Source: Euglena gracilis (Eukaryota). From it: DNA of 64,000 nucleotides. A program made the position numbers and the translations under genes. Location of the stretch: assembly GCA_039621445.1 (NCBI GenBank), contig CP154954.1, positions 25,494,954 through 25,558,953 on the forward strand. The letters run 5' to 3'. Shown here in pieces: positions 9,482 to 63,850 of the stretch (its first letter is position 1; each line of letters opens with the position of its first letter). The notes beneath the pieces are model-generated. The model worked only from the letters and a program-made list of their open reading frames with translations, had not been told where the DNA came from and ran no database searches.

Positions 9482-9962
9482 CAGGGGTTTTCTGAAGCCG
9501 GAGGGGACCCTATCCCGGGGGGGGGGGTCCAGCCAGCCAGCAGCTCAAATCCAGCCAGCAGCCCAAATTCGGGCTGGGAGCCCCCCCCCCCGGGGGTCGA
9601 GTGAAATAAAGTTGGTTCCAGCCTGGCCTCCGGCCGGGCCAGCCGGCCGCAGGCTGGCCAGCTAAATGGGCTGCCCAGCTCACCTATCCCTGCATTTTTT
9701 CAGTAATTAGGCTGTTCCTCCAGTCCCGATCCAGCCTTGATCTAGCTCCATCCATCAAAATGTCGAAAATGGCAAAAAAAAATTCGTAAATTTTTGTTTT
9801 TCATCGACCCAGCCCAGCCCAGCCCCCTCCAGCCCCTCCCCCCCCCCTCCCCCCCCCTTATGCCCCCCGGGGGGGTCCAGCCAGCAGCTCATTTCCAGCC
9901 AGCAGTCTTTTTGCCAGCCGGAGGCTGGACCCCCCCCCCCGGGGTCTTTAAGAAAACCCCTG
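9482..9962. mobile_element. hAT-like MITE, family E (CAGGGGTTTTCT...AGAAAACCCCTG)
   Basis: 12-bp TIR, TSD gccaagac/tgcaagac (6/8), and many internal CCAGCC repeats. A related right end is at ~21240-21328. Confidence 0.8.
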
Positions 9963-13570: not shown

Positions 13571-14992
13571 TTTGGAAAATAATCTAACTCTCCAATAGGG
13601 ATTTCAGGGGCATTCCGGTTCATCTCTCACTCAAGTTAAAGAAACTCCAATGAGAGTTTATTAATAAAAAAAATTAATAAACTCTTTTATAGTTCCTATT
13701 TTTGTTCACTATGACATCCACCATTCTGACACCATGAAACGCACTGGTCCAGCAGGGTGTATGGGGTTCTTGTTTTGTGAATTAAAGCAAAGGCGTGACA
13801 GCAGTGCCAGATTTCGAAAATCATGGAACCATTTCCCAACGATGTTCCGTGCTCCGGCAAGTTGTTTCAAACATCTATTATCGGCCATCACCTCTCAAAA
13901 TATTAGTTCTGCCCTTAAAGTTATGAGCTGGCATTTTCCGGGGTTGGCAACCTTCCATCCAAGTGGTCTCACAGCCAGGGTATTAAGTGAAGGGAGAGGG
14001 GAGAATGGGGTCAGACCCCCCAGGGTGGGTCCAGACCCCTCCTCCCCACCTGGACCCCTCTGGGGACCAGATCCCCATGAAAAATCTAAGGCGCTTTACA
14101 CCGTAGTGACGGCGTAAACTGACTTTTTGACCCGTTTTTGACACAAAATACATGGGTTTCAGGCCCAAAACAGGGAGCTGGGGGGTCGAAAATTGCTCAT
14201 CTTCGGCTCAAAAATAATTTTTACGGGTTCAGGAGGCCCAGATACATTGTTTGGGGCAAAAAAAATCGATTTTTTCGACTTTTTTTGACCCAGAAATGGC
14301 CCAAAATCCTTGGGGCCCGGGGTCGAAAACCGCTTTTCGGCTCGAAAACAGTGTTTCCCAGTCAGGCTGTATTTTAGTTGGGTGCCGACCCCACCCCAGG
14401 GACGTTTTCTCGAGATATTTTCGAAAAAATCGATTTTTTGACCGAAAATCACCTCGGTGAAATGGTCGGAAGGGGGGCGGGCCAATCCTACCCAGTTTGG
14501 GCCCCTTTGCGGCTGAATGACTCGGGCCTCGCAGGGAGTTGGGGGTCAAATGGAGGTGATTTGGAAACTCGACATCCAGTCACTCGCGACTGGAAAAAAA
14601 ATAACAGGAATGGAGTCGGGGTCATGGTGATTATCCGCCGTTCCTGAAGTCGCCTCGGGACGGGGGGTTCGACCCCCCCCTTTGCCCAGGGGTAAGCTTC
14701 GCTCTTACCCATAAAGGTATAAGAGTTCTTAGACCCCACACTTAAGTGTGGGAGCTCCACTTTGTACCATGTGTGGGCCAACGACTACCCCAATCGCTGC
14801 CTCCCACCCGACTTTGGAACTGAGAAACTCGGGGTTTCCGATGCAGTGCCTCCCAGGGGCTCTGTGTCAGCGTTGCACGTGTGTTCTGGTTGGAGTGCCC
14901 TCCCTCCTCGGTACCCGGGCGATCGTGTCTGCACATGTGGCTCGCCGGACACAAGGTGCGACCCCCTCCGGGGCCCCAACCCAGCCCTAACC

Positions 14993-15385
14993 CAGGGTTC
15001 GATATAAGGAGGGCGTACATGGTTTAGGTGGGGGGGGTGTCCCCCCCCCCCTCCTGGCCCGCAGGGGGGGTCCGGACCACCCCCCCCCCCACCTGCAAGG
15101 GGGGTCCGGACCGACCCTGGGGGGGGTACTCGGGACCCCCCCCAAAAAGGGTCAATTTTTTCCTCCGGCGCTTCGCGCCGAAATTTTTTTGCATTTTTGG
15201 CCAATTTTTGCCCAAAAAGTGCCCAAAATGGCACTTTTGGTCGATTTGGGGGGTCAAAAATTTTCGGTCACCCTGACCGCACCACTGTTTAGGTGGGGGG
15301 GGGGGTCCCCCCCCCCCCCCCCCCTCCTGGCCCACAGGGGGGGGTCCGGACCACCCCCCCCCTCCTCTCCTTATATCGAACCCTG
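14993..15385. mobile_element. hAT-like MITE, family A (TIR CAGGGTTCGATATAAGGA)
   Basis: Perfect TIR of at least 18 bp and perfect 8-bp TSD CCCTAACC (14985-14992, 15386-15393). Contains a GGCGCTTCGCGCC hairpin. Confidence 0.9.
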
Positions 15386-18297
15386 CCCTAACCTCCCCAC
15401 CATCTGCGCTGGCCTGCCCTGCCAACCGCATGCCTCCCCCTGCAGTCCTCTTCAGTCTTCAGTGTGGTCTTCATCCTCAGAGATGAAGGAAGACCGGCTT
15501 GGAAAGCACACATTTCTTCAAGGTTTGCAGACCCCGATTTGGTACACCCCAGCCGCAACAGTACCCTCCTGGGGGAGGGGTTGCTGCTGGCCCATAAATC
15601 CAGCTCTTTGGGGGTCCAGCTGGTCTTGTTTTGCAAAAGTGTAGGTCAAAAATCGCCATAAAAATGGTGTTCTGGGAGTTTTTGATGATGTCACGTGCTT
15701 GATTATTTTTTTTGAAAAAATGTTTGGTGGCTGCTTTTTTGTACCATTCTGGCTTCTTGCCCAAGCCCAGCAACCCTCCCCCCCGGGGCCTTGCGGACAT
15801 GAATGGTGGGTACCCCCGCATCGCAGGACCGTGAGCCAACCATGTGCTCCGCCCTCCTCTCCCACCTCTCCTCGTCTGCTGGGCCTCGGCATTCCCCTCA
15901 ATATATCTAAACCGAGGCGGCAAGTGTATAACCCCCTTATACCCAGGGCTGAACGAAACCCCAGAAGCCCATAGGTGGAGGGGACAGACTATTGTTCAAC
16001 GTGTATTGTGAAAAAGTGTAATATGTGTTTCAGCACAAAAATATTTGTGTATCAATTGTGTATCACCAGAAAAGGTGTGTCACATGTCACCGAAAAGGCA
16101 TTGTTTATTTTATGGGTCCACAAAAAGAATGCAAAGAAGAATAGTCACTGAAGTTGAACACATCGAGACAATTTTCTTCGGTGTGATTCCCCAATTTGTG
16201 TTCCTAATTTTCCTCTAACGCAAACCTTCCATAGCCTTGATCATTTGATCAATTTGTGGCATGAGGGATTGTGTTCCTCCCCGGTCTGCCGCAACAGCAA
16301 GGCCAGATTCCCCGTTCCAACCCCTCCCAAAGAAAGGCCGCACAACCCCCCCCCCCCCGATCCAATTGAACAGAAAAAACAAAGTAAGGCCCTCACATTT
16401 GAAACCGTTTCTGGTATAAGCAGGTGTTTCCCTCCCCTCCCTGCCCCATCGTGGTGGACCGACCGGACCGGACCCCCCCCCCTCCTGAACCGGAGGTGGG
16501 GTGCGGACTGACCCTGGGGGGGGGGGGGGGCAAGGCACCCCCCAATATCAATTTTTTCTCTTCGACACTGACCACCAAAAATTTTGGGCATGTGGTACAT
16601 TTTTGCCCCAAAAAAGCTGACACGTTTGGCTGATCTTGGGGGGGGGGGATTTTTCGGCTTGGTGATTTGCGCCAGGCTGAAATTTGGCCACCTGGACTGC
16701 GCCACTGAGGGGGCATGTAAACCCAACCCTGAGCTGTCGAACATCCCTGCATTGATGTCTGGGGGGGGGGGGGCTCACCCCCCCTTTTTTTTATCTGGGA
16801 GCACGGAGCCTTGCGTTGCAGCTTCCTTTTGTCCATGCGGCATTGCCGTTCTTCCCCCTGTCGACCTCCCTCTGCCCCAGTACACGCCATTCAGCTCTGC
16901 CGATACTTCCGGTGGCAAAGCAAAGCGGCACGGTCGGGTTGGATTTTCCCGGCCCCCGTCATCTGCCGGTGACTGGGATTCCCCAAATCGTGTGGCATGG
17001 AGGGAGAAAACCGTGGTGCTGTTCTGGGAATGACGAGGAAGTGTGATGCGCAGTTTTGCCCTGCCAGCCGAAAATGTCAACGAATGCTACATATGACGGA
17101 TTTTGTGTGTGTGTTTTTGTTTTTTTTATAAAAAAAAATGCCGTGACCCCTCATTTTTTTGGTGTTTTGTTCTGCTTCACATCCAATTCAGAGGCCGCTA
17201 TTGCCCTCCACCCAAAGGTTGGTTGTTTCCCTGCTTTACCTTCAACCATTGCCCGGGACAAACCCCTGTGTGCCCTGGGGGAGGTATTTATCATTGAGTC
17301 ATTTTTTATGCAGTATTGTGTGAGATTGTGTGACATTGATGGAAGTGAGTGGTAAATACGAGGGAAATGGGACATACCGGCGAGGAAGAAGGGCCAAAGG
17401 ATAGTCCAGTAACCGGACCCTGCCAGGGTATTTGGCAGGGGTCATTTCAGTGAAGAGGTCGGTGCATTTGCGCTTTTCCATTTCTGGGAGTATATTTTGC
17501 TGTTTGTGTATTTCTTGAAACCGGTGTTTTCAAATCTGTGCAAAGGCCTTTGATGCCCCCCGGCCACATTGGCGACTCTTTCTTGGCTTTAATTTGTCCA
17601 AGAATCCCGGCCAACGCTTCCATATCAGAGCCCAGCCATAACCCTTTCGGTGCACTGCACCCCTTCGGTAACAGTGCTCCTGTATTTTACGGTTTACGGA
17701 CGGCGTTCTTCCTGCTGCGTGCCTCCTCGTGGCAGCGTATCCTCCTCATCTGGTTAGCCCACCCCTGTCCGCACATTTCCCATGTCAAGCACATTTCGGC
17801 AAGATCGTTATTTTTTGGGAAAGCTCTGCAGAAACTTTATAATTGCCTTTGGGAAGCAGATTACTGATCCTGTTTGTCATGCCCACCGCATTCAATGCCA
17901 TTTCTCTCAAATTTAATTTTTTGGCCAAATTTGATTTTTTGGCCAAATTTGATTTTTTTTGGCTCCACGCATGGCCCAAATTTCGCCAAGGTGTGAAGCA
18001 TAGTTGTAGGATCTTGACCCCCAAATTGTATTTCTCAGAAGTTAGATCAAAAATCTTCCGTCGGGCATCTCACATTTTCAATCGTTGTGCAGCTGTTCAG
18101 ATGTGATGTCTGAGCTGTTCCCAATCCCAATTACGATAAAACCTGGCGGATGTATTTACCTCCCTTACACAAGGCACACCAAGTCATTGACACGTCAACA
18201 GCAAAAAGCTTGGACATCACCCCCCCCCCCATATCTAACGAACCTCCCTTTGTCTAACGGCCAACCCCCCTACAGTCGGAGGACACAATTTCGGAGG

Positions 18298-18598
18298 CAG
18301 GCTGTTTTTTTTAAGGTGGTGCCGACCCCACCCCGGGGGGGGGGGGGGGTGCCTGCTTGGGCAGGTACTCCAAGGCACAAAAATCCGACCCATTTGGAGG
18401 GGGGGGGGTAGGGCACACGGCCAAAAGTGCCCTAGCACAACCCTGGCGCCGGGAAGCCCAAAATGGCCTATTTTCAAAGGAATGTGCCTGGGCACAGGCC
18501 GAAATCCAACCCCCGGGGGGGGGGGGGGGTAGTGCCTGCCTGGGCAGGCACTCATAGGCACTCCGGACCCCCCGGGGTTGTTAAAAAAAAAAGGCCTG
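18298..18598. mobile_element. hAT-like MITE, family B (CAGGCTGTTTTTT...AAAAAGGCCTG)
   Basis: Imperfect TIR with a perfect 8-bp TSD TTCGGAGG on both sides. Related pieces lie at ~7410-7485 and 14363-14400. Confidence 0.85.
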
Positions 18599-27499: not shown

Positions 27500-28201
27500 C
27501 AGGGTTCGATATAAGGAGGGTGTACAGGGTTAAGGTGGGGGGTGTCCCCACCCCCCTCCCTCCTTCAAGGCTGGAGGGGGGCCCATACCCCCCCCCACCT
27601 GCCAAGGGGGGTCCAGACTGACTCGGGGGGGGGGGTACCCGGGATCCCCCCCAAAAAGGTCAAAATTTTCCTTCCGGCACGCCGGAAAATTTGTTGCATT
27701 TTTTGACAAATTTTTGCCCAAGAAGTGCCCAAAATGACGTTTTTGGATGTTTTGGGGGGTCAAAAAAAGTTCGGCCTGGAACTTTGTGCCGGGTCGAAAA
27801 TCAGTCACCCAGACCACGCCACTGATTAGGTGAGGAGGGATGCCCCCCACCCCCCCCCTCCTGGACCGCAGGGGGGGGGTGGTCCGACCCCCCACTTGCC
27901 CTGAGGGGGGGGGGGTCCGACCACCCCCACCCCCCCCCCGCAGGTCCAGACTTCCACCTGACCGAAGGGGTCGTCCAGACCCCCTGGGACCAGAAAATTT
28001 AATCTGGCGCTTCACTCCAGAAAAGATGACAGTTTTGGTGTAAGTTTCGGCCATTTTTTTCAAAATTGCTCACAAACGAAATTTTCGGGCCTTTTTCAAG
28101 TTTAAAAAGTTTTCTGGCACAAAGCGCCAGCAATTTTTGCACAGACGAGGGGGAGTCCAGACCCCACCCCCCGCTCCCCGCTCATTTAATTCCTATCCCT
28201 G
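27500..28201. mobile_element. Family A MITE copy (right end degenerate)
   Basis: Starts CAGGGTTCGATATAAGGAGGG, and the interior resembles 14993-15385. Confidence 0.7.
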
Positions 28202-29611
28202 GGGGTCAGGTCAGCCCACCCCAGCCAGAAGCAGGGTTAACTAGGAAAACTAAATGATTTTTTCCCCATTTTGGATGGTTTTGGGAAGGATGAGTGAATA
28301 AGTGGAAATATGCACCGTGCAGTTTTTGCAGTTTTTTTGCAGTTTTCACGTTTTGGGTTTTTTGCCGTTTTTTGCAGTTTTTTTTTGCAGCTTTTTTTTC
28401 TATAAAAAAATGCATACGTGCAGTTTTTTGCAGTTTTTTTTTGATTCCGGTTTTGAGGAAACCTGAGGTGCTGGATTATTGGGTTGAAGTTGGAGTTGAG
28501 GATTTCGAAATTCGTGGTGCCGCAAAGGAGCACAAGCTCTTGAAGAAGATTGGGTCTTGCCCCAAGCATTGTGGCCAAATGTCACACACGCCAAATGCTT
28601 CAAAGAGCAAGAAGTTCTTTCTTATTTGCAAGAACTTCCCAGGTTGTAGACCATTTGGCAATCCCCTAAGGACAGTGTTCAAAGTTTGCGGTGGTTGTTG
28701 TATATTTTTTTTCATCGTGATATGGAGAAACTTCACCAGGTGATGGATCGAAAGTTCCACATCCCCTGCAAGAAATGAAAGCATTGAAAATTTCTGTGTA
28801 TTTCTGTGTATGCATTTTTCCCATATTTAAAAAGGAAACCGTTTGGCATCTTTGTGGGCATGGTCGGTACAAGTTTTGGTGCAGGAAAACCAGTGTCCCG
28901 GCATCGAAACACATGATTTGCATTTCACTGCATGAAGAACCATGCAGAGTGCACCTTGATTGGTTGCTTCCATTTTTGTCGTCATCAGTTCCAAAGCTGC
29001 GCAAAGAAAAGTTAGGTGAATTGGGGTGTGCTTATGTGGTCGCAATTTACGTTGTTTTGCATATGCAGACCATTTCAGCTTGTTTATTGTTATTATTTGT
29101 TGAAGTGCAGTTTTTTTGCAGTTTTTTGCAGTTTTTTTTGCAGTTTTTTGCGATGCAGTTTTTGACCGGCCCGTGTGCAGTTTCTCCCCCCCCCCTGCCA
29201 TCATTCTGGAAAAGAAAGAGCACCAGCGCTGACCCCCGCCCAAGGTCGTCAAACAGCTGGTTTTTAGCAGGGTGGTCCCCAGTCTCCAGCCACCACCGGG
29301 ACCTCAGAATCCCTCACCCCACACTCTCTCTCCACTCTCGACGTGCCTGGTGCCAGTTCAACGAATCAGAAGCCTCCTTCCCCGCCCTGGAGGGTCGAGT
29401 GGCGCGGTGGACTCGTTGACCCCTCCTGCTCAGCAGTGCCTCTGCCTGTGTCCCTGTCAGATGGGCGATTGCTGTAACGCCGGTGGTGGGTTTCCTTCCC
29501 CGCGCCACCCGGCAACGCCACTGACAACAAGTGTCTTGCACCCGCATTGCGTACGCCACTGATCAGGAAAGAGGTCGGAGAACACAGTCCCGGTGCAAAA
29601 TGGGACAGGGG

Positions 29612-29911
29612 CAGGGGTTTTTTTCAGTCTTGGACCCCCTCCCCCGGGGGGGAGGGGGGGGTAGGGGGGGTGGGTCCCTTGGACCCCCCTCCCCCGGGGG
29701 GGGGGGGGTAGGGGCTGGTGGGTATATCTTTTTCGGCGCCGAAGGCGCCGAAAATTTTGAAAAAGGTGCTATTTTTAGCATTTTCGGGCAAAAGTGGTGG
29801 GTCCCCCGGGACCCCCCCCCTCCCCCGGGGGGGGCCCCACCCCAGGGGGGGGGTGGGTGGGTGCCGCCCCCCTCCCCCCCGCCCCCCCCCCCAGTTTTAA
29901 AAAAGCCCCTG
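29612..29911. mobile_element. hAT-like MITE, family C (CAGGGGTTTTTT...AAAAGCCCCTG)
   Basis: 8-bp TSD GACAGGGG on both sides and an internal palindrome TTTTCGGCGCCGAAGGCGCCGAAAA. Confidence 0.9.
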
Positions 29912-35500: not shown

Positions 35501-35545
35501 CAATTTCCCGACCAACCCTTTCTCTCACTATTTGAACCTCCCAAG

Positions 35546-35623
35546 CAGGGGTTTTTTTTAGTCTTGGACCCCCTCCCCCGGGGGGGGGGGGGGGGGTGGG
35601 TGGGTTCCTTCGACCCCTTCCGC

Positions 35624-35656
<33 letters not shown>

Positions 35657-35844
35657 CTTTTTCGGCGCCTTTGGCGCCGAAAATTTTGAAAACGGTGCTA
35701 TTTTTGGCATTTTTGGCCGTTTTCAGGCAAAAGTGGGTGGGTCCCCCGGGACCCCCCCCCTCCCCCAGAGGGGCCCCACCCCAGGGGGTGGGTGGGTGGG
35801 TGGGTGCCAACCCCCTCCCCCCCCAGTCTTAAAAAAAACCCCTG
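35546..35844. mobile_element. hAT-like MITE, family C
   Basis: Collinear with 29612-29911; perfect 8-bp TSD CTCCCAAG. Confidence 0.9.
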
Positions 35845-46620: not shown

Positions 46621-46907
46621 GTGCTCCCTGGGTGGGGATGGAGGGACAAAGACACAACTCACTCCCACCCGCTCATTTGCGACCCACTCCCGCCGCACCG
46701 TTTGCCCGACGCCATTCGCTGACTGCAGCCAATGGCCGTCCGCCACCCCCCTCCCCAGTGAGGTCTGCCGGCGTCCGTTGCAACACAACCGCCAGGGCGG
46801 GTTTTGATTGTCGGGCTTTCCATCCAGTACAGGCCACGCGCCACCCGAACTGTTCCTTGGGCCGCACTACTGGCCGCGGGATGTGTCTCGAAGAAAATCC
46901 CCCCGGC

Positions 46908-47315
46908 CAGGCTTTTGCTTAAGGGATTGCAGTACCCCCCAGGGGGGGGGGGGGGCTGGATCGCAGCTAGTCCAAATTTGGCTAGTGGGATTTCTAGCAG
47001 ACCCCCGGGGGAGTCTGGGGGGGGGTCTGCTAGCAGGGCTAGCTAGTGGGAAATTTTTTTTCCAGTGACCGGCGCGAAGCGCCGAAATTTTTTTTTTGGG
47101 ACCCCCCAAAATGGCCAAAAATGCCCGTTTTTGGCTATTTTGGGGAATTTTTGGAACAAAAACAGCCAAAAACCTATTAAAACCCTCATTTTTAAGACCT
47201 AGCTAGAGCCCCCTCCCCCCCCGGGGGGAGGGGGGTCTAGCTAGTCCACTTTTTCCAGTGTCTAGCCGATTGGCTAGCCAGTACCCCCCCCCGGGGGTCC
47301 TTAAGCAAAAGCCTG
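46908..47315. mobile_element. hAT-like MITE, family D (TIR CAGGCTTTTGCTTAAGG)
   Basis: 17-bp perfect TIR and perfect 8-bp TSD CCCCCGGC. Internal GCTAG repeats and a GGCGCGAAGCGCC hairpin. A diverged copy starts at ~23492. Confidence 0.92.
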
Positions 47316-50816: not shown

Positions 50817-50920
50817 CAGGGCTGTACGGGAAGGCCTGGTGGGGGGGGGGTCGGACCCCCACCAAAGGTGAGGGGGTCGTGGGAGGTGGGGGGTGGGGTC
50901 GACCCCCACCACCCACCAGG
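50817..50920 (-). mobile_element. Family F MITE end (CAGGGCTGTACGGGAAGGCCTGG), the same family as introns 53576 and 57659
   Basis: The reverse complement ends CCAGGCCTTCCCGTACAGCCCTG and carries GGGGTCGACCCC. Further pieces are at 21910-22126 and 56910-56987. Confidence 0.7.
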
Positions 50921-53454
50921 GCACCCGCTCAAAAAAAAATTTCTTTTGGCTGCCCTGTGTGGTCCAAAGTGTGCCGGCCATGTTCTGGCAGCAACAGCCC
51001 CCTCCCTGCACTGACAGCACAGGCCCCCCGCCCCATCACGCCGACTCAGTAGCTCGGGGCCCTCCATCACACCGGTGGCCCCGGCCAACACCCCACGCCT
51101 CAGGCGGTCGCCTGAGAAGAACCGGCATTCCGACAAGCCCTTTCCTTTTGTTGTGACGGGGCGCTTCTCCGGTTTTCGAGACCAGAAACACCCCTCTTCC
51201 CCTGGGGTCGGTTATTTTTACCTATTCTCTGGTTTGACCCTAAACGCATCTTTACCCTTAAATTGCTGATGCCCAACATGCTCTGCATACATTTTGGGAC
51301 AGTCTCTAGGGAGGAGACCCTGCATCGACGCAGGCAAGCACCTCCAGCGACAAATCCCGACAAATCTGACAAATTCAACAATTATGGAAATTTAGCATGT
51401 GCCTCTAGTAATATACCCAGTTCATTTTTGCTTTATTTTTTGGGGACGAGATTTGGGGGTTTGCTTTGCTCGTAGGTTGTCATAACCCAAATTCACGCTC
51501 CACGTCATCAATGACGCTTTTGGTTTGTATGTGTACCGCGAAAGGAGTTCCTATGCCATAGAAAGTCTGATAAGGGAAGATCACCATCCCATAGAGAAAC
51601 CATATGGTGGACCACACCTTATTTGGCTTGGAAAAGAAGTCCCTGACTGGTTTTTGGAAGAGTGTAAATTAAACCGAATTCCCAGAACAACAATTGACAA
51701 AGAAACAAAAGGCAAAGAATATCTACGGCTTCTGCTTCTGGAGGGTTCATGAGAGTACCCCCCCCCCTCCGGGGTACACAGGGAAAACGAAGGCAGAGCA
51801 TTCTTCGATTGGGCTGCTTCAACGGGAGGGGATACATCTTTCCACAGGGTTCTGAAGGCACACATTTGGAATGCAATTTTTGAGTTTCATTGAGCTTCCG
51901 CATTCTGCAGAGGCTTTTGAGGGGAACGAAACGGGATCGCAGTTGTCACCTTCCGCCCCCTTGGCTCCACAAATATGCTCAGGGTTTGGCATCCCCCGTT
52001 GTACGTATGATTCCACACAATTGGCCCCTTGGGGGGGGGTCATTTCCGTTTGGGCAATTTGGCCCGTTTTCCTGTGCTGTCCACCGGGGTGACAACCGGC
52101 GTCGATCACCTGTTCTGACGTCCAGTTGGGGGGAGGGGACGATGCAAGCAGAATAGAAACCATGTTTCTGATCCCTGTGAGGAGGCGTTGAGCCGGTGGC
52201 CAAGTGACAGTGTTGCTGGATGTGCAACGGCTTGGGCCCATCACCAAATGCTGGGGCTTCCCTCTTTGATGGCACCATATATATACCCGGCTCCCGCCCC
52301 CTGCCCGCCCACCCGCCCGCCTGCCCCCCCCCCCTGCCTGTCGACCTGACTTGCACGTGTGTCGATTCACTCCCGCACAGACAATTGCCCACTCCCGCAC
52401 AGGCCCTCGCCGACTGCTGGCCCCCTCATCACCCTGCCATTTCCAAAGCCAGTCTCTGTCCGGGCTTTTTTTAAGGAAGGTCGCACCCCCCAGGGAAATG
52501 CAATGGGCAGGGGGTTTGGCATTTCAGTCCCCCCCCCTGAGTGGTTTGAAGTGGGTACTGCTATGGTAGTTTTTTTTTGGGTTTTTTTTTGCTCTTTCGA
52601 CGCCTCACCGGAATTTGAGGCACCACAAGGGTGGAGACAGCGAAGCCTGCTCTGACTGACTGTCTGACCCAACCCACTCCCGCGAAAAGCTCCCCAGCCT
52701 CGACTTCTGACCATCCTGCACAGCTCCTCGCCCCGTCCTAGACACCACAGCTTTCCGTCTGGTTCTGCAGTCTTCAGCACCCCAGCCGATGCCTGATACC
52801 GGCACAGAACGTTGACTCTTAGTGCTTTCAGATCCTGTTTCACGGTATGTGTTCGAAGAGTGCCGAGAACGCAACTGGGGATGCAGGCGGGCATCAACAA
52901 AGTCTTGCTCGTTCTTGCTGTCTTTTTTCTCTCCATTGTGCAGGTGCACCAGTGCACCCCCTAAAGAAATCCTTTCTGGAGTAGGCAGATGGGGAGTGGT
53001 GAATCAAAGGTGAAGGGTCTAATCGAACATTTCTGGTTTTCACCCATATTTTGTTTTGGGGGTGCCTGGGGAACCGCCCCTTCCTCCTCCTCCTCCTCCT
53101 CCTCCTCCTCCTTCTTCTTCAAGGAACTTTTTCCCTCCAAGCAGGGTGAAATCCCTGGGTCCGAGGGGGTATTACCGGGTCTGGCCGACCTTTTTCCCCA
53201 TAGAGAAATGCCCACACAGCATAGCTTTAACGAGTTTGACATGGAAGAGTTAGCCCGAGGAACATGTGATGGGCCATTTATCAAAAATACACAATGTGGT
53301 GTCCCTTAAACCACAAGAAGGAGAAGAAGAAGAAGAAGAAGAAGAAGAGGCGGAGGAGGGGGAAGAGGAGGAGGTGGTGGTGGTGGAGGAGGAGGAGGAT
53401 GAGGGGGAAGAGGAAGGAACACTGCACTTTGCCCACCTATTTGTCCAACCGTTG

Positions 53455-53503: not shown

Positions 53504-54013
53504 ATGGACAACCTTCTCCAGGCCAACACCCCCGTCCAGCGCGAGGGCGCCCAGCCCACGCCCAGCTTTCCCCCCGGCCAGGGCTGGCCGGGAAGCCCCG
53601 AGACCTTGACAGGGGTCAACCCCCCCCCCACCAAGCCTTCCCGTACCGCCCTGCCTCCGGCAGCCTGCCCTCCTCCCCGCAGGTCAGCTTCCTCACCGCC
53701 CTGGGGCAGGCAAGCAAAGGGGTGGGTGGCCAACCCCCCCCCCCCCCGCGGGCGCGTGGAAACTGTTTCGCCGGCACGCTTGGAGGAGTGATTCCGCAAA
53801 GTGGAGCCTCCCACAGTACCCCACATTTAAGGGTGGGGGCTCCATTTTATGCCATGTATGTATATATACATGTATATGTATATATGTACATATATACATA
53901 TACATGTATATATACACGTACATATATGTATGTGTATCTGTATGTGTGTATATATACGTATATGACACACATATGTGTATACACACGTATGTATATGTAT
54001 ATGCACGTGTGTG

Positions 54014-54045
<32 letters not shown>

Positions 54046-57000
54046 TGTATGTATGTATGTATGTATGTATGTATGTATGTATGTATGTATGTATGTATGT
54101 ATGTATGTATGTATGTATGTATGTATGTATGTATGTATGTATGTATGTATGTATATGTATATATGTATACATATGATAATATATGTATGCATATATGTAT
54201 GTGGGCTGGCCCTTGGGCTTGGGCCAGGTCGGGGCGGGACGCGCGCATCAGGTCCCCTCCTCCTCCCCACGGCGGCCCCCCTGCCAACCAGCCCCCGCCC
54301 CGTGCCAGCCGCCCCGCCCCCTCGCCATGGTGCTGACCAACTCCCCGCCCCCCCGCCCCGCCAGGCCACCTCCCCCCGCCCTGGGCCGGACTGGGGGGGT
54401 GGAGGGGGGCGGACGGCATTCTGTTTCAGGCAAGTGCTTTTTTCAATTTTGGGGGTATTTTAAGGCTTTTTGAGGCATTTATTTTCCAAGGCACAGTCCG
54501 GACATCAAACCAACGTCGGTCCGATTCAAAAGCCAAAAAAAAAGTCGAAAAACTCATTTAGGTGGATGGCAGTTTTCCAGCGATGCCAAAAAAAATCATT
54601 TTTTTCCCGGGTTAGCTTGTTTTGCCAATATTTTTCTTCATTATTTATTGCTAGGTCAGAGAAAATTCTGCCAAAATGACTGATGTTGACTGACTGGTGT
54701 TTTGAGGCATTTTAAGGCGCATCGTGTTGTTTCAGGTTTTTTAAGTTGCGGTATTGCCTAGGTGGGTGAGGGGTGTGGTTTGGTGGCCAATGGGGGGGGG
54801 ACCGCAAACAGGGGATCGGGGCACCCCACACACCCATAAATTAATGGAATTTAATTGATTTATTTTTTTTAATTAATCAACTAAAAGCGTGTCCCAAACG
54901 CCATTCTTGTTCTGACGCATCATCACATTTGAAAGGATCGGCATTGCAAATCGGTGCGCGTCGGACAAGCGGCCAGCAGCCCCGCCCGGCGCCCAAGCTG
55001 GGGGCGCGGTCCCCCTGGAAGGGCCGGCTAGGCAGCAGCCGCATGTCCAAGACCGAGTCCCTCGCCAACAAGCAAGGCTCCATGGCCGCAGCCGGCTCGA
55101 GCGTTGGTTGAGAGACACGTTCAAGAGGCAAATACCCCCTCCGTTGTAAGGCAGGGTGCGCTGTGGCCAACGAGGGTTGCTGGGGGTGGTGGCGTCGGGC
55201 TACGCGTCCAAACAGTGTACAGTTGTAGTGATCTTTTCGAAGGGGTTGCATATTTTTTCCCTCATAAACCAGGGTTTTGCCAAAAAAAAACACAACAGAC
55301 AGTTCAGAGTGTGTCTCTGAGGTGGGAGATATCCAAGAAAGTTGTGTTTTTGAGGCATTTGCATTTGCATAGTAAATTGTTGAATGGCTGGCCATTCCTT
55401 TGTTTGGTTAGCCTGGGGGGGGAGAGGTGCTCAAGAACAGACTTGTTCACTCCGTCGGCTAGGGCTCCTCTGCTTGCACCCTGTACTTGGAAGGGTAAAT
55501 CTGATCCCCCCTGCCTGCCAGAAAGGTTCGCTGATCAATGTACTCCACACAGTGGCAGTTAAACCAGCTTTTGTGTGCAGGTCCTCCTCCAAAAATAAAG
55601 ATGAGTGTTGAACCAACATGAAAGGGAGGGTCCTCCAAAGGACTCCTCAAAGAGAGGTCCTCCAAAAGTTCGTCGGAAATTTTCCATTACTTTGTCTCCG
55701 ATTATGTTCCAAAATAGGTGTTTCCAAATCAGAAGCAGAGATTCTGCTGTGCCCTTTTTGACGCATACTGAGTACAAAAATGAGAACCACAAACGCTTAC
55801 ATTTTCAGCGTTTTCTTTCAGTCTCGATTCCGTCAACTTTTTTCAGTCTCCATTAAAAAGCAATCTTTCAATTATGATTGGTTTCCCAAAATGCTTGAGG
55901 TTTTTCCACATTTTTTTAAAGGTTTGGAAATCAAGATATATATATATAAGGTAGCAAGAGTTTACTCGGCCCACGGGCCGAGTAAAGTCTCCAGGGGGGG
56001 GGTCCGTGTAGCATCCCCCACGCCCAAGCTTCGGGAAAATTCGGGGCTATTTCTCGGGATAGGGTTAGGGTTCCGACCGGATTCCGGGACGGCGCCCCCA
56101 TTTGGAATTTAGGGAGAGGTTCGGCCGCATTGCCGACAGTTTCCGACCGAATTAGGGTCGAATTGCGGTAAAATTACGACGAAAGGGCGACCCAAAAATC
56201 TTCAAAACGGCGACCTAACTTCCGGCCTAACTTTATCCCTAAAACGCGCCAATTTTCTGTGCGCCGATTCTTACCCTAACCATATTCCTCTGATAATAAG
56301 TGCGGAATCTCCCCGGATCCGACAGATTTGGCCCGGATCCGGCGCTGTTCCGGGGCCCCGCGGGGCCGAAACGGGGGGAACGGGGGACGCGGGGGATGCT
56401 ACACGGACCCCCCCCTGGAGACTTTACTCTAAAGTCTTGCTAAAGTCTTGCTGCCATATATAAATATAATATATGTTATATACTAATAGACGTGTATATG
56501 TGCATATATATATATATATATATATCTGTATGTATAATAGATATAATTATAATATACAAAATAAACGAAACCGCTGAATTCTCCGTCACCGTGGAGCCAG
56601 CCCTCAAGAGGTGCCCAACGCTGGCGCCTCCGGCTTCGAGGGGGCCCCGGGGTCGATCCATGAGCCGCCGGAGCTGGACCTCGACGCGGACCTGGAGAAG
56701 GAGCTGTCCCTGGAGCCGGAGGTGGTGGAGGAGGTGCCCCACGTGTTCCGGATCGTCCTGACGGGAGGGCCCTGTGGGGGTGTGCCATCCTTCCGGAAAT
56801 TCCTGCTCTTGCGGTGGACCATGCTCAATGATGATTTCGACTCCCCCGTTGGCACTCTTTCTCCGTTGGGTTGTATAATAACGTTCTGTGTTCTTTGTCA
56901 TCCCCATCCCAGGCCTGAAACCCCATATGGGTGGTGGGTGGGGGGTCGACCCTCTCCCATTTTTTGTGGGTGCCCCCCCCCACCAGGACGGATTTGAGGT

Positions 57001-60000
57001 GGGAGTTTTTTTAAATTTTCTCTTCGGCTCCAAAGGAATTTACGCTTGTGCGGTGCTGTGGTGGGGGTGGGGATCGGCCCCCAGACCTTCCGGTGCAACC
57101 CCGCGCCCCCTCGTTGGTGCAGCACGGAGTCTGCCGCCACCGCCGTCAGTCTGGAGCCACCCCCCCACCCATGACGTCCCTCCCCGCCTGCCGGTTTCCC
57201 TCGCAGGTAAGACGACTGCGCTCTCCACCATCGCGGACTACCTCCGGTCCCTGGGCACCCAGGTCCGTGTGCTCCCCAGCCCTGTGCCGCGCCTGCCAGC
57301 GGGCGGTGCGTGGCAGCATTATCTCTGCAACACGGCTGATGGCGCATCACGTGCTGTGCAGCTTTTCGTTCGGCGGTAGAGCATAGGATGGCCCCCAAAG
57401 TTCGATGGGAATCGGGCAATTTCACGGGAACTGCAAGAAAACGGTGAAAACACAGCCCGGCTATCCACCCAAATTTTCCCCCTGAGACCCCCCCCCCATA
57501 GCTTACATTTGCGTACGTTTCGAAAGTGAGCTTTTCGTCCGCTGGCAGCGCTGCCCCGCCCCCCACAGGTGTTCATGGTGCCGGAGAACGCCACCATCTT
57601 CGCCAACGGCGGGGCGGGCTTCCCGGTGCACTCCTCCAAGGCGCAGCAGATGTGCTGGGAGCAGGGCTGTGCAGGAATCCCCACAACCTTATGGGGGGGG
57701 GGTCGACCCCCCACCCCCATCCTGGTGGTCGGGGGGGGGGGGTCCCGACAACCCCTCCCCGCCAGGCTTTCCCGTGCAGCCCTGGCCGGGAGAGCTCCCG
57801 CATCATGTGCCAGATGAAGATGGAGGGCCAGCGGCCCCTTGGCGCCACCCCCCCCCGGTCGGGACGCTCTTGTTTGAAAAGAATGGAAGTGTTTTTTTGC
57901 CGCTGCGGCCCATCCCCCTGGGCACTCTGGGCATTGGTGAGACGCCGCCAAAGTTTCGGTATTTCGGCATCGACCTCGCCAAAATTTTGATGTCGACCTC
58001 TGCTACCCTTCACATTCCCCGAAAAGAGGTGCCTCATCATCGTCGCCATTACTGAGTCGGGATTTGAATTCTTTTTTGATGTTTCCCAGGGCGTTTTGTG
58101 TCTCGCCGCCAAGTAACATAGGGGCCTTTGTTTTGCACAGGAGGATGGCAGGAGGTCGATGGCCCCGCTTCCCGTCTCGTTTCTGAGATGGATGCAGCCA
58201 TGCCCCGACGTACCCGGCTCGGCCTCCTCCACCTGAGATTGCCATCCTGGAGGCATCAACAGAGTGCAAATTGCATTATTTCCTGGAACAGCAGAAAGTT
58301 GCCCACGTGTTGAAAACGTGGTGGTTTTTGGAAGGCCTGGAAGTGACAGGGAGACAACAAGAAGGCCAGCCAGTGCAAGATCATTCGAGGGCAAGTATTA
58401 CCCCAACCCCGGGGGGGGGGGGGCAGGAGAGTGGGCAATGCACCGCTGCGGGGGACTGCTTCATCCAGATCGCGAAGTCGAGCGGCAAGCCCACCGTGGT
58501 GCTGTGCGACCGCGGGACGATGGACGCTGCAGCCTACATGGACTCGCAGGTCTGACCCCACCCCACCTTTGAAGAGTACTGGCTGGGGCTCAAATGATCC
58601 GTCGAATGAAGCCCGATGTGTAGAGACCAGGTCAAGCGCATTGGCTGGAAATTTCGAGTTTGCTGAAAAAGGCTCCAGGCTAACTCCCATCCCCTGGGTT
58701 GGGGTCCCAATGCTGGGAGCAGACCAGCGCTCGCACCCAACGTAGGAAACATGGAGGTGGAGATGTGAAAGCAAAAAGAGCAAGGCATTTTTTGATTTTG
58801 AAGTTCCATACAAAACGTTGCATACAAAATTGATCAGGAAAAAAATTGGTTGGGCAAAAATCGCCCAAATATTTCCTCAGCATTTTAAGGATTCCGCCCA
58901 ATTTTTTCACCGACTGTGCACTTGAAGCATCTCCAGAAAAAGATATACCAAATGGTTGTTTTCTGGATGAATTCTGGTTTTTGTTCCTTTTTTCTGAACT
59001 CAATCTAATGAATTCTGGATAAAAGGAAGGGACATATGCCAAGGGGCTAAGGGCTGATAACTCGGTGGCCGAGAGTTCAGCGCCGGACCGAGGGGTCGTG
59101 CATTGATTGTCATTCAGCATCATGTTTTCTAGAAGGAGAACCACCACTCACTTATTTCCAGACCAATTACCATAGTTTGGGTGCCCAAATATGTGCCCAA
59201 TTTTTCCGCAATCAATTTTTCCTGAACTAATTTATACAGGACCAATTTTTGACCCCTCCCCCAGTATTTTTCAACCCGATTTTGGCCTAATTTAGGAATC
59301 CATTTCAAAATGCAACGGCGTTATTGTCCACGACGATTAAATCAGGAGTAAGGCCGAGGCTGGAAATAGGCTAGCTGGCTGACCTCCCCAGCAGCTTCAC
59401 CAATAAAGGGATTCAGGAGGTTTTCGCATCATATCAGCAGTGCAGCATGGCAATTCTGCTTTTCTTTGAGTCTTCTTTTGCTTACAGGTTTATTCATGTT
59501 TTTCTAATACGTTTCACCTGCATTATTCCGATCGATTGTAGTGTGGTGGCATCTAGGCAGAGCAACATCTCATGGAGCGAAAAGGACCGTGCCAGGATGG
59601 GGGTTTGTGGCACCTCCGTGCAATGATTCCGCAGCGCTGGAACGAGCTAATGGAGCAGATGGGATGGCCAGGGATAGTCCGGCGCTGTGGCAGCAAAGCG
59701 CCCCCTCCCCCTGATGGGGTCTGTCCACGGACCCGGAGGATGGCGGCTGGCTTGGTCCTGGGTGGCCCCCGCACGCCTGGTTTCAGGCATGGCGACGCAG
59801 GAGTGGCCAACGTTGGCACTCCCACTGCCCCCCCCCCGGCCGGTCCCTGAGGGCCGGCAGACGGACATGCTGCGGGAGGAACGGTACGACGCGGTGATCC
59901 ACCTGCACTCCACGGCCATCGGGGCGGAGGACTACTACACGCTGAGCAACAACCAGGCCCGGCGGGAGGGGCTGCAGCAGGCCGCGGAGCTGGATCAGAA

Positions 60001-62944
60001 GATCGCCGCGGTGTGGGCTGGCGGGGGCCTGGGAGCGTCGGGGGCAGTTTGGCCTGGGGTCCATCCAACCGAGAGAGGATTTTTTTTTCTTGGCATGAAA
60101 TTCAAAGTAAGCACATATTGAAAGTCCTCGTCCTCTCATCCAGTCGTTCTCCGCCTGTCATTTGACCTTAGAAAAAAAAACACACCTTGGGGGGAAAGTA
60201 TGGCGCTTCGAACCAAAATTCATTTGATAATTCATGGACTCCTTCAGCCTCCTCGTATTTGTTTCCCCCTGTGGCACGCCGGCCCCACGCTGCCTCTTCC
60301 CCCCCTTCCAGCCCTCCTGTCTGTCGCCAGGTGTGGAAGGGCCACCCCCACGTGGAGTACATCGACAACTCCACGGACTTCCCGCAGAAGATCATCCGCG
60401 TCGTGGAGGCCATCTGCCGCATCCTCGGCATGCACGCCCCGACGTCCAACGGCTTCTTCAAGTGTGCTGCCCCCCCCCTGCTTTGTATCACCCACGCCGG
60501 GCGCTGGCAGTGCAGCGGTGTGTTTCGGGGGGGCTCCGGCGTTGGTGCGGACAAGGCCACAGACAAGCGGTGTGTGTGTCACACGGCGAGGCAGTTGACC
60601 CCGAGCAGATGGTCTCTTTTTCGAAATATCTGCCTGTGGGGAGGGGGTCCAGGGCTGGAAACAGGCTGCCGGCTGGCTGGACCCCCTCTCCTGTGGGGGT
60701 GGGTGACCCTCCGGCTTCAGGGGTGCCCTGATTCGAGGACGAAAAGGGGGCGAATCGACATCGCCCTGTGGTTCCAGGTAGCTATCTTTTCTGTTGTTGT
60801 TTTTTGTTTTTGAGACCTGGTCGTAGCCGAAAAATACTGGTCTCGGCGATCCCCAGGCCAGCCAGGTCTGTTCAACACTCTGTTCGCATAGGATTATCGA
60901 AGTTCCAAAATAGTCCAGCAACAACCATGTGCAGGAATAGGAAAAAAAGATTGACAAGGAAGAGGAAGATGATATGGAAAAGGAACAAAGGATAAGGTCA
61001 AACACGGTTTGCTGGCTTCTGCACCCACCTCCCCTACCCCAGGGTATGAAGTGAGTGAAAATCTGGGCTGCTGCTGGCTGACTGCCACACCCCACTGGGT
61101 CCCATGGCTAGAACTAGGCCCGAAGCTGGGGTCGAACCAGGTTCAAAAAAAAAGATCGAAATGTCAAAATGACCAAATAACAGTGCGGTAACAGCAATTC
61201 CAATAACAAGTAATTCCAATAACAGTGCGGACAAAATCACAGGAGACCCCTCCACCGGGGGGGGGGGGCGCTGGGGGACCCAAAAGTGCCAAAAAGTGTC
61301 CAAAATGCTTTGTAAACAGATCTGTGCAGTTTTGGGGGGGTCTTCGGCCAGAAATTGGGGGTTTTTGTGCAGGAATTTGTTTTGGCCAATTTTGTGGAAA
61401 TCTAAGCCCGTCTGCTGAAAGCCCTTGAGAAGAGCTTTCGATCAAGGGGCAACATGGCTGGTGCAACATTGCGAGCAGGGTCGGAACATGCGATCGGCGA
61501 TTTTCAGAGCGCTGGGCATTGTGGCTGAGTTCTGTGGGCAGCAAGCGAAAGGCCTTGGGGAGAGCTTTCGATTGATGTGCTACATGGTACACCCCCCTCC
61601 CCCTCCCTCATTTATTGCCTTGGGTGGGGGGGGTGCACGGGCTGCCTGTATGTATGTATGTATGTATGTATGTATGTATGTATGTATGTATGTATGTATG
61701 TATGTATGTATGTATGTATGTATGTATGTATGCATGCATGCATGCATGCATGCATGCATGCATGCATGCATGCATGCATGTATGTATGTATGTATGTATG
61801 TATGCATGCATGCATGCATGCATGCATGCATGTATGTATGTATGTTTGTATGTATGTATGTATGTATGTATGTATGTATGTATGTATGTATGTATGTATG
61901 TATGTATGTATGTATGTATGTATGTATGTATGTATGTATGTATCTCGCCGCGGGGCCGCAGGGTGTTCGGCATCTCCCGGGATTTCAAGGACGTGCTGCC
62001 CCGGCTGTGCATCCGCTTCGAGGAGTTCTTCGTCCAGACCGATTTCCTCAAGAACTCCGGCCCGCGCGCCGTCCTTCCCCCTCCCCTCCCCTCCGACACA
62101 CCTCTTCCCACACCGGCTCGGCGGAGGCTTCCGCAGTCTCTCAGTACGGACCGGCGGGGTTCTCTGGCCCACCGCTGTGTCTGTCCGCCGGGCAAAGGGT
62201 GTGGCGTTGTGCCGTGCGACGCGGTTTGGCGGTTTGGCGGTGGCGGTGCCTCAACACCCGCTGTGTGAGGCACCGCCATCCCCGACCCGCCCCCGACCTA
62301 CCCCAGCCGGCAGCCCCGGCCCCGCCCCTTACCGACTCCAGCCGACATCCCCGACCCGCCCCCTACCTACCCCAGCCGGCAACCCCGGTCCCGCCCCCTA
62401 CCGACTCCAGCCGACATCCCCAACCCGCCCCTTACCGACTCCAACTGGCAGCCCCTGGCCCGCCCCCTACCTACCCCAGCCGGCAGCCCCGGCCCCGGGG
62501 ACGGCGGGCGGCCCGCAGCGCGGAGAACAACCAGAGCGTGCGGGTGCGCCGGCAGCGCGACCACGCCTCGGAGCTGTCCCTCTACACCTGCCGGGGGCAG
62601 CGGTGGGCAGTGTCGCTGGTTCGGGGGATGGGCGGTCGACATCGAATTCCTTCTGCAGCTTTCCTGGACATATTTCTGGACAAATCCCGGAAAGATTTTT
62701 CCGAAATTTTTCCCAAAAACCTCCAACGCCAACCCTCAACTGCGTGTCTGCGGCATGTTCAGGGCAGGCAACTTCGGGGTGACTTGCGTAGGACCCAGCC
62801 ATTCTTCTGCAATTCCTGCACCCGTCCTCCCCTCCTCCCCTCCCCGCCACCACCAGCCCCGCCACCGGCGTGCTCGCCAACAACAAGGTGGCAATCGAGG
62901 AGCGGGCCATCGACGCCAAGGAGTATTTCTCACTGTTGAAGCAG
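53504..62944 (+). CDS. Ttd14: Ttd14-like protein (P-loop NadR/Ttd14 AAA domain + CYTH-like C-terminal region), multi-exon, 3' end beyond window. Well-supported exons: 56609-56779, 57207-57262, 57569-57658, 57790-57825, 58454-58549, 59635-59665, 59856-60010, 60331-60461, 61962-62058, 62517-62602, 62857-62944. Probable 5' exons: 53504-53575, 53659-~53709, ~54960-55076
   Basis: The spliced translation keeps phase at every junction: HVFRIVLTGGPCG|GKTTALSTIADYLRSLGTQ|VFMVPENATIFANGG...CW|ESSRIMCQMKME|DCFIQIAKSSGKPTVVLCDRGTMDAAAYMDSQ|RWNELMEQMG|WQTDMLREERYDAVIHLHSTAIGAEDYYTLSNNQARREG...KIAA|VWKGHPHVEYIDNSTDF...GFFK|VFG...QTDFLKNS|SAENNQSVRVRRQR...YT...|PATGVLANNKVAIEERAIDAKEYFSLLKQ. Walker A TGGPCGGKTT, CDRGxMD, RYDAVxHL, AxGAExYYT.xNN and WxGHP...IDNS are motifs I recognise from the Ttd14 family. 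Linkage of the 5' exons is less certain. Confidence 0.85.
53576..53658 (+). other. Nonconventional (non-GT-AG) stem-forming intron, MITE-derived
   Basis: C|GGCCAGGGCTGGCCGGGAAG...CTTCCCGTACCGCCCTGCCTCC|G. CAG at +4..+6 and CTG at -8..-6, complementary ends. Removal gives PSFPP|GSLPSSPQ. Flanks cccccggc/cctccggc (7/8 match). Confidence 0.75.
53853..54201 (+). repeat. (TATG)n / (TA)-rich microsatellite
   Basis: Direct inspection. Confidence 0.97.
55942..56462. mobile_element. Long-TIR foldback element inserted in a TA-repeat, probably inside an intron
   Basis: GAGTAAAGTCTCCAGGGGGGGGGTCCGTGTAGCATCCCCC (55980-56019) is inverted at 56391-56429. The outer ends TATATAAGGTAGCAAGA / TCTTGCTGCCATATATA lie in (TA)n. 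Confidence 0.8.
57659..57789 (+). other. Nonconventional intron, a complete short MITE copy
   Basis: GAGCAGGGCTGTGCAGGAA...TTCCCGTGCAGCCCTGGCCGG. CAG at +4, CTG at -8. Removal restores the conserved frame (CW|ESSRIM). Flanks gctgggag/gccgggag (7/8 match). Confidence 0.85.
57826..58453 (+). other. Nonconventional intron
   Basis: GGCCAGCGG...CCGCTGCGGGG. CAG +4 and CTG -8, with CAGCGG/CCGCTG pairing. Joins KME|DCF in frame, and no GT-AG alternative was found. Confidence 0.8.
58828..59233. mobile_element. Diverged MITE within intron 58550-59634
   Basis: Imperfect inverted ends AATTGATCAGGAAAAAAATTGGTT / AATCAATTTTTCCTGAACTAATT. Confidence 0.5.
59666..59855 (+). other. Nonconventional intron
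   Basis: GGCCAGGGATAGTCCGG...CCGGCCGGTCCCTGAGGGCC. The ends pair, with CTG at -9 (one nt off consensus). Joins T|GG = Trp in frame. The boundary is ambiguous by up to 3 nt (GGC repeat). Confidence 0.7.
61647..61943 (+). repeat. (TATG)n/(CATG)n microsatellite inside intron 60462-61961
   Basis: Direct inspection. Confidence 0.98.
62059..62516 (+). other. Nonconventional intron with CCG/CGG in place of CAG/CTG
   Basis: C|GGCCCGCGCGCCGTCC...GGACGGCGGGCGGCCCGC|A. 12/13 complementary positions starting at +4/-6, with Y|R at both junctions. Joins KNS|SAEN in frame. Confidence 0.7.
62277..62496 (+). repeat. C-rich minisatellite (~35/70-nt units, CCGCCCCYTACC core)
   Basis: Repeated CCCGCCCCCTACCTACCCCAGCCGGCAGCCCC and CCGCCCCTTACCGACTCCAGCCGACATCCCC. 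Confidence 0.85.
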
Positions 62945-63614: not shown

Positions 63615-63850
63615 TAAGGGGTCTTTTTAGTAGTTGACGCATGGGGGGGGGCGGGGGTAGGGTGGGTGGGTCCGGTCGAGCCCCCCCCCCCGGGGGGGGG
63701 GGGTCCCCCCCGGAGGGGGGTGGGATATACTTTTCGGCGCCGAAGGCGCCGAAAAAAGTGCTATTTTTAGCACTTTTCGCAATTTTTCGGCCATTTTTTG
63801 TGGGTCCCCCGGGACCCCCCCTCCCCCCCCCGGTCTTAAAAAAACCCCTG
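63615..63850. mobile_element. Family C MITE copy nested in a family D-like element (~63159-63944)
   Basis: Same palindrome and right end CTTAAAAAAACCCCTG. The surrounding sequence resembles 46908-47315. Confidence 0.7.

Follow-up and report, generated by a model that had tools for sequence, protein, structure and literature searches.

The nonconventional introns of a Euglena gracilis gene were analysed in a 64,000-nt stretch of DNA, hereafter the window (assembly GCA_039621445.1, contig CP154954.1, positions 25,494,954 to 25,558,953 of the forward strand; coordinates below count from its first letter). [quoted passage not shown] Because 3 + 5 = 8, a cut placed 3 nt before and 5 nt behind such an element takes out the element plus one copy of the duplication. 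This equivalence had been put forward for two introns, d and a candidate called i1, in a first-pass annotation made from the letters alone; within the window it is supported by a scan for flank repeats, which peak at exactly 8 nt, by flank identity confined to 8 nt and by the cut position that RNA allows. To judge from its sequence, i1 is probably an old MITE insertion of the same kind and is treated here as a candidate intron.

Several components of this interpretation are already in print. A MITE-like origin of euglenid nonconventional introns was proposed earlier (PMC3935182), in agreement with the remark in the first-pass annotation that a transposon origin had been suggested before. Their CAG/CTG motifs have been described as an inverted repeat and their junction repeats as 'TSD-like' (target-site-duplication-like; PMC11282704), the main text of that paper giving neither a length nor a superfamily for the repeats and containing neither 'hAT' nor '8 bp'. 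In Euglena agilis, a newly gained gapC intron carries eight-nucleotide junction repeats, longer than those of other introns and ascribed to break repair (PMC4770533). Nonconventional introns make up ~70% of the introns of this species, and knock-in experiments defined the splicing code N3-CDG...CH'G-N5-6|R, in which the 3-nt spacer is strict, 5 nt are preferred and 6 nt tolerated at the other end, and both pairing behind CDG/CH'G and a purine at the downstream exon's first position are demanded (PMC12501133). The available part of that report calls the spacers random, excludes the 'slidable' introns (84.4%) from motif finding and leaves the origin open. On excision the intron is reported to be released in circular form (cited in PMC11282704). 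A literature search covering papers outside subscription returned no link between the 3 + 5 spacers and an 8-bp duplication and no hAT assignment. The MITE origin, the TSD-like repeats and the 8-nt repeat of a new intron are therefore prior knowledge, and the 3 + 5 = 8 link and the hAT assignment were not found in the parts of these sources consulted.

Splice geometry of the nonconventional introns

RNA was placed on positions 54160-61600 from two contig runs presumed to be RNA (X15 and X16) and two raw RNA-seq runs (X21 and X24), the four used for joints among the 24 sequencing runs listed for the stretch. Joints were defined by one transcript contig per contig run (depth 330.5 in X15 and 209.1 in X16) together with raw reads. 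Five skips lack GT-AG, with ends CC..CG, GG..TC, GG..CC, GG..GG and GG..CC, and read letters before 54295 map to 53666-53695, indicating a sixth non-GT-AG intron. Introns a to f are thus RNA-verified, and i1 is a candidate by sequence.

53576..53658, + strand: candidate nonconventional intron i1, 83 nt, by sequence; core 53579-53653 (75 nt) with CAGGGC/GCCCTG ends
53698..54296, + strand: nonconventional intron a, 599 nt, RNA loose end; leftmost register 53696-54294, slide 6
54374..54991, + strand: nonconventional intron b, 618 nt, ends CC..CG, RNA joint 54373 to 54992; outside the CAG/CTG code
55084..56654, + strand: nonconventional intron c, 1571 nt, ends GG..TC, RNA joint 55083 to 56655; outside the code, with a nested 506-bp element
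57659..57789, + strand: nonconventional intron d (the second intron of the first-pass annotation), 131 nt, RNA joint 57656 to 57788; MITE-like core 57662-57784 (123 nt)
57826..58453, + strand: nonconventional intron e, 628 nt, RNA joint 57824 to 58453, slide 2
59666..59855, + strand: nonconventional intron f, 190 nt, RNA joint 59665 to 59856, slide 3

The joint of intron d, with ends GG..CC, was present in both transcript contigs and in 13 X21 raw reads beginning at 13 places (0 reads in X24), and its cut slides over 5 nt within a range that includes 57659-57789. The 131-nt skip therefore bears out the non-GT-AG intron that had been placed at these positions from sequence. Its layout comprises GCTGGGAG (57654-57661), the core CAGGGCTGTGC...GTGCAGCCCTG and GCCGGGAG (57785-57792). 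In i1, the corresponding layout (53571-53661) is CCCCCGGC (53571-53578), the core CAGGGCTGG...CCGCCCTG and CCTCCGGC (53654-53661). The flanking 8-mers are identical at 7/8 positions in each of the two pairs, and all sequence features that had been claimed for i1 and d were found where they had been placed. The further argument that the single mismatch falls in the intronic half of the repeat proved uninformative, because a 3 + 5 cut gives every duplication position one intronic and one exonic copy.

Geometry was expressed as D, obtained by subtracting the inverted-repeat element's length from that of the intron, and exact helices were counted at the intron ends; RNA duplex folding of these ends was dropped in favour of this count, its G+C-driven pairings having run into the exons. 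D is 8 in i1, d and e. The terminal helix of d is 8 bp long (CAGGGCTG/CAGCCCTG), and those of i1 (CAGGGC/GCCCTG), e (CAGCGG/CCGCTG, element 57829-58448) and f (CAGGGA/TCCCTG) are 6 bp long, perfect helices that supply the pairing behind the motifs. Intron a ends in CTGG...CCAG, a variant of CDG/CH'G, with an outer 4-bp CTGG/CCAG helix read by eye and an inner GGCAGG/CCTGCC helix from the helix count. The flanking 8-mers match at 6/8 positions in a (TCACCGCC, CCCCCGCC), 5/8 in e (TGGAGGGC, CGGGGGAC) and 6/8 in f (GGGATGGC, GGGCCGGC). The predicted hairpin of d has a folding energy of -90.2 kcal/mol (z -2.56), and the fold of i1, with a z-score of only -0.90, is no better than those of shuffles. 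Frame adds little weight to i1: with a 2-nt-shorter C-run at 54348, the ATG at 53505 is in frame with the main open reading frame only after removal of the 83 nt, an argument that is weak because the C-run difference is polymorphic in reads.

These introns conform to the published code, with CDG at 3 nt and CH'G at 5-6 nt in d, e, a (as the CTG/CAG variant), f (with N6) and i1, in a register that RNA allows for a, d, e and f. They share with the euglenid nonconventional introns described previously (Milanowski et al. 2014, 2016; PMC12501133) the CAG at +4 to +6, the CTG at -8 to -6, the pairing and the purine, as well as non-GT-AG borders and junction repeats that make the cut slidable.

When left and right flanks of a, d, e, f and i1 were compared in the register given by intron length, identity reached 31/40 at positions -8 to -1 vs 34/145 elsewhere, and fell to 0/5 at position -9. 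For the RNA-verified a, d, e and f alone, 24/32 positions were identical in the 8 nt next to the repeat as against 26/116 outside (Fisher p = 7e-8). Since the duplication copies have diverged, the source copy of each mRNA base can be read, and the RNA allows a cut after duplication position 3-9 in a, 3-8 in d, 4-6 in e and 5-8 in f; the intersection is 5 or 6, and the published N3 rule predicts a cut after position 5. Position 6 of the right 8-mer, the first exonic base under that rule, is a G in each of a, d, e and f and likewise in i1 (CCTCCGGC).

The cores of i1 and d belong, as had been claimed, to one repeat family, with shared ends and a third copy in the window:

50818..50957, - strand: third copy of the i1/d family, CAGGGCTGTACGGGAAGGCCTGG... 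end; blastn match of 94% over 35 nt to i1, and alignment

Over its final 35 nt, the i1 core is 94% identical to 50817-50851 on the opposite strand (blastn). All three copies align at the ...CCACCAGGCCTTCCCGTACAGCCCTG end, and i1 and d also at the CAGGGCTG..GGAA.CCCC end. A GT-AG intron contains a fragment of the family at ~56900-57000, and loose read ends (e.g. 56926, 57696, 57726) point to further copies expressed elsewhere. In metagenome contigs the family end motif had 0 occurrences with the first pattern, and no contig carried the family; 119 metagenome loci obtained with a looser end pattern were discarded, blastn having given one 23-nt match that was the pattern itself and is attributed to chance.

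CAG-ended MITEs with 8-bp duplications in the window

The whole window was scanned for CAG...CTG pairs 40-3000 nt apart with an inverted-repeat match of at least 9/12, which gave 769 candidates. Perfect direct repeats flanked five of these pairs at k = 8, and 0 at k = 5, 6, 7 and 9-13. With at most one mismatch, the counts were 21 at k = 5, four at k = 6, three at k = 7, eight at k = 8, 0 at k = 9, one at k = 10 and 0 at k = 11-13. Permutation of partners (2000 runs) yielded at k = 8 a mean of 0.126 perfect repeats (maximum 2) and 0.83 with at most one mismatch (maximum 5), and the corresponding means over 100 block shuffles were 0.01 and 0.2. This DNA therefore does contain CAG-ended MITEs with 8-bp target-site duplications; for the flank-repeat class as a whole, though not for single introns, chance is excluded.

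A scan for any terminus was swamped by microsatellites and was repeated with these masked. Outside tandem repeats, the relaxed scan returned eight elements, namely five MITEs with perfect duplications, the two introns of the first-pass annotation and one further family copy; 7/8 begin with CAG, and the eighth is the family copy, its end mutated to AAG.

14993..15385: MITE of 393 bp; 19-bp inverted repeat CAGGGTTCGATATAAGGAG; perfect 8-bp duplication CCCTAACC (left copy 14985-14992)
18298..18598: MITE of 301 bp; CAGGC... ends; perfect 8-bp duplication TTCGGAGG (left copy 18290-18297)
29612..29911: MITE of 300 bp; ends CAGGGGTTTTTTT; perfect 8-bp duplication GACAGGGG (left copy 29604-29611)
35546..35844: MITE of 299 bp, 29612 family (83% identity); perfect 8-bp duplication CTCCCAAG (left copy 35538-35545)
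46908..47315: MITE of 408 bp; 17-bp inverted repeat CAGGCTTTTGCTTAAGG; perfect 8-bp duplication CCCCCGGC (left copy 46900-46907)
63616..63850: 29612-family copy of 235 bp; one end AAG for CAG; flanks CGGGGGGT and AGGGGGGT match 7/8, G-rich and weak

The five elements with perfect duplications are MITE-sized and have inverted repeats of 12-19 bp. Relatives of these MITEs occur in the window at 27500, where a truncated relative of the 14993 element begins, at 63616-63850 and at 9482-9962. The elements, introns included, show the hallmarks of MITEs: lengths of 75-408 bp, absence of coding capacity, inverted-repeat ends, a duplication and 2-4 copies per family in 64 kb.

The arrangement N3-CAG...CTG-N5|purine is present in 5/5 of the MITEs with perfect duplications. 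In this very small sample, C also occupies position 3 of all five duplications and position 6 is always a purine; under the published code it is with position 6 that the downstream exon begins, and a purine is called for there. The pattern could reflect a target preference that makes insertions spliceable immediately. Separately, i1 and the 46908 MITE have an identical left 8-mer, CCCCCGGC, in unrelated outer flanks, which is probably due to chance or to target preference.

Origin of the introns and competing explanations

The course of events that we consider likely for a, d, e and f would begin with a cut-and-paste transposon with CAG-type ends that duplicates 8 bp at insertion. A helix-measuring excision activity of the host would then take out the element plus 3 + 5 nt, so that one chimeric copy of the duplication would remain in the mRNA and the pre-insertion message would be restored exactly. 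The message being restored, exonic insertions would be tolerated, would persist and would accumulate as introns, their duplications decaying thereafter (in the present introns the match ranges from 7/8 to 5/8). On this reading, the two halves of the duplication would be what the published code treats as 'random spacers'. The statement of the first-pass annotation that any such insertion is a perfect intron goes too far, the code also demanding a downstream-exon purine and pairing behind CAG/CTG (PMC12501133). Read in this manner, 3 + 5 = 8 refines an existing hypothesis, with good local support, and introduces no new kind of element.

Several observations weigh against this interpretation. The evidence derives from a single gene in a single 64-kb window, with RNA verification limited to a-f. 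Introns b and c, 2/6 of those verified, have no CAG/CTG ends, terminal helix or D = 8, and intron f has a 3 + 6 geometry (D = 9), its extra A (CTGA) being taken up by the 6-nt spacer; the proposal that nonconventional introns are MITE-like thus fits a, d, e and f, the last with this deviation, and does not fit b and c. In intron a, D is 8, with the element start placed in the knowledge that this value was being looked for. For the ends of introns a, b, c, e and f, blastn within the 64 kb returned 13-nt chance matches and no relatives, and the 50818 family copy shows no recognisable other end or flank duplication. Translation across the five perfect MITEs after subtraction of the element and 8 nt gave no convincing coding frame, and none of the five is evident as an intron. 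Finally, the GT-AG introns of the gene carry junction repeats of 3-7 nt too (CAGGT, CGCAG, GGTGTGG), so that junction repeats alone are not diagnostic. The 7-nt GGTGTGG exceeds the usual proto-splice-site match; such junction repeats are seen at 60003-60016 / 60323-60336 and at the other GT-AG introns.

As to the transposon superfamily, hAT elements are characterized by an 8-bp duplication, short inverted repeats beginning C/T-A-R-N-G and the target nTnnnnAn. The structural type of the elements described here appears most like hAT, a label that draws on two structural hallmarks, the duplication and the CAG-type ends; beyond these the hAT-like designation of the first-pass annotation is not supported, a transposase and the hAT target consensus not having been found. 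The C/T-A-R-N-G start fits CAGGG (14993, 29612, 35546, i1, d and f) and CAGCG (e), and with hAT MITEs the elements share the exact 8-bp duplication, the CAGGG/CAGCG ends, inverted repeats of 12-19 bp, small size, lack of coding capacity and several copies. They differ in their C3/purine-6 target, in the CAGGC ends of two families (MITEs 18298 and 46908), to which the CTGGG of intron a adds a further deviation, and in the lack of a transposase, the seven long open reading frames searched (of 21 of at least 230 aa in the window) having no Pfam family. Read by eye, the hAT target is absent, with T at position 2 in 2/9 and A at position 7 in 4/9 duplications.

These departures are what an assignment to another superfamily, non-hAT or specific to Euglenozoa, of 8-bp-duplicating cut-and-paste transposons would draw on. 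In its favour, C occupies position 3 in 8/9 duplications (by eye), in combination with a purine at position 6 in all the perfect copies, and the literature search turned up no paper on a hAT transposase in Euglena. However, CAGGG/CAGNG ends, short inverted repeats and exact 8-bp duplications are together most typical of hAT, and we consider a different superfamily unlikely.

The remaining alternatives concern the introns rather than the type of transposon. Origin by double-strand-break repair with filler DNA, the 8-nt repeats being repair footprints, has been proposed for the E. agilis gapC intron (PMC4770533) and could appeal to the junction repeats of the GT-AG introns; yet it leaves unaccounted for the inverted-repeat ends, the family formed by i1, d and the 50818 copy, and the fact that repeats around many unrelated CAG-ended elements are strictly 8 bp long, and is quite improbable here. 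We regard as very improbable, too, the view that the inverted repeats and the resemblance of the flanks evolved in place as splicing signals, with a coincidental likeness to target-site duplications. The code does demand fixed spacers and an acceptor-exon purine (PMC12501133), and weak junction preferences exist at both ends (PMC6221363), but spacer identity is no splicing signal, because artificial introns with arbitrary spacers splice normally (PMC12501133). Moreover, the identity fills all 8 positions, with a sharp stop at -9 and at the CAG, and the same architecture occurs with perfect repeats at five sites with non-coding-looking flanks. Spread of the introns as RNA, the excised circle being reverse-spliced or reverse-transcribed and integrated, can draw on reports of full-length circle excision (cited in PMC11282704 and PMC11146597), but reverse splicing makes no target duplication, whereas here five copies have a perfect one of exactly 8 bp, which renders this route extremely improbable.

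If a, d, e and f are old MITE insertions, the excision system and the transposon type may be matched, the 3 + 5 cut offsets corresponding to the 8-bp staggered cut and the target preference supplying the purine. We offer this extension only tentatively, as a possibility that is somewhat less probable than not.

The interrupted gene and related intron systems

The gene that carries these introns extends on the + strand from ~53.5 kb to 62.3 kb and is a Euglena-type nuclear gene with five GT-AG and six non-GT-AG introns by RNA, in window DNA that is G+C-rich, eukaryotic and contains microsatellites. Its exons match the AAA_28 profile weakly (E-values of 0.006, below Pfam's cut-off) in the correct order along the profile, which tentatively suggests an AAA_28-like P-loop NTPase as the product. 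An Rfam search of the window returned no family. The GT-AG skips in the RNA run from 56778 to 57206, 57259 to 57566, 58544 to 59630 and 60009 to 60330, and read letters behind 60462 map to 61963, indicating a fifth GT-AG intron (60462-61961). No circular back-joint occurred among the RNA joints of 54160-61600, where read depth is low.

~56780-57206, + strand: conventional GT-AG intron, RNA joint
~57263-57568, + strand: conventional GT-AG intron, RNA joint
~58550-59634, + strand: conventional GT-AG intron, RNA joint
~60011-60330, + strand: conventional GT-AG intron, RNA joint
60462-61961, + strand: conventional GT-AG intron, from a loose end

Additional features were recorded in and around this gene. 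Long (TATG)n / (TGTA)n microsatellites lie at 53854-54202 and 61647-61943, inside introns a and g, a microsatellite at 54016-54154 falling within the first of these spans. A 35/69/104-nt tandem repeat occupies 62273-62497, where the reading frame is proline-rich toward its 3' end. The 506-bp element nested in intron c (55950-56455) has long inverted repeats (GGYAGCAAGA...GAGTAAAGTCTCCAGGGGGGGG TCCGTGTAGCATCCCCC), with telomere-like TAGGGTTAGGGTT inside, and ends other than CAG; its perfect 8-bp flank repeat ATATATAA, in AT-microsatellite-like flanks, may be due to chance. The C-run at 54348 is two letters shorter in both transcript contigs, a difference seen in 0/2 X21 and 1/2 X24 reads, and is an assembly error or else a difference between alleles or strains; this variant settles the start of the main frame, at ATG 53505/54327 or at a later ATG (~55043). 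Exonic single-base differences between window and RNA (57595 C>T, 58528 T>C, 59905 G>C and 60670 C>T, some at intermediate frequency in X21) are most likely alleles or strain differences.

Transposons that turn into introns are known from other lineages. The maize Ds element has been described as a de novo intron (cited in PMC3935182); Ds uses spliceosomal sites inside the element, whereas here the RNA is removed without them. In introners (Micromonas, Aureococcus; Amoebophrya, PMC7789003; Fritillaria, PMC11282704), transposon insertions likewise become introns, inverted repeats join the ends, the duplication overlaps the exon/intron boundary and removal restores the message. Introners, however, have 3-5-nt duplications, which provide a splice site, and are probably removed by a (modified) spliceosome; in the present case 8 bp are duplicated, and removal is apparently non-spliceosomal and helix-measured. 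GT/GC-AG sites provided by the element or the duplication, which define spliceosomal introners, are lacking, the ends being GG..CC and similar. The elements thus act like introners but are not members of the spliceosomal introners. In relation to the published euglenid code, with its 'random' spacers and 'MITE-like' origin, the spacers are interpreted here as the halves of an 8-bp duplication, and MITEs that have the same ends and perfect 8-bp duplications occur beside the gene.

The origin and the removal of euglenid nonconventional introns are questions that have stood since the 1990s, and the splicing code of 2025 came, in the available part of the report, without a stated rationale for its 3-nt and 5-6-nt spacers (PMC12501133). 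Should the spacers be halves of a duplication, the code would be precisely what erases this type of transposon from the message, the 'slidable' majority would become the most informative class of introns, the idea could be tested at once on existing genome and RNA data of E. agilis and E. gracilis, and this would be the clearest non-spliceosomal introner system. Should the excision system and the transposon also be matched, nearly every exonic insertion would be RNA-silent from the outset, which would account for the ~70% nonconventional share of E. agilis introns (PMC12501133), and the excision factor might itself be transposon-derived.

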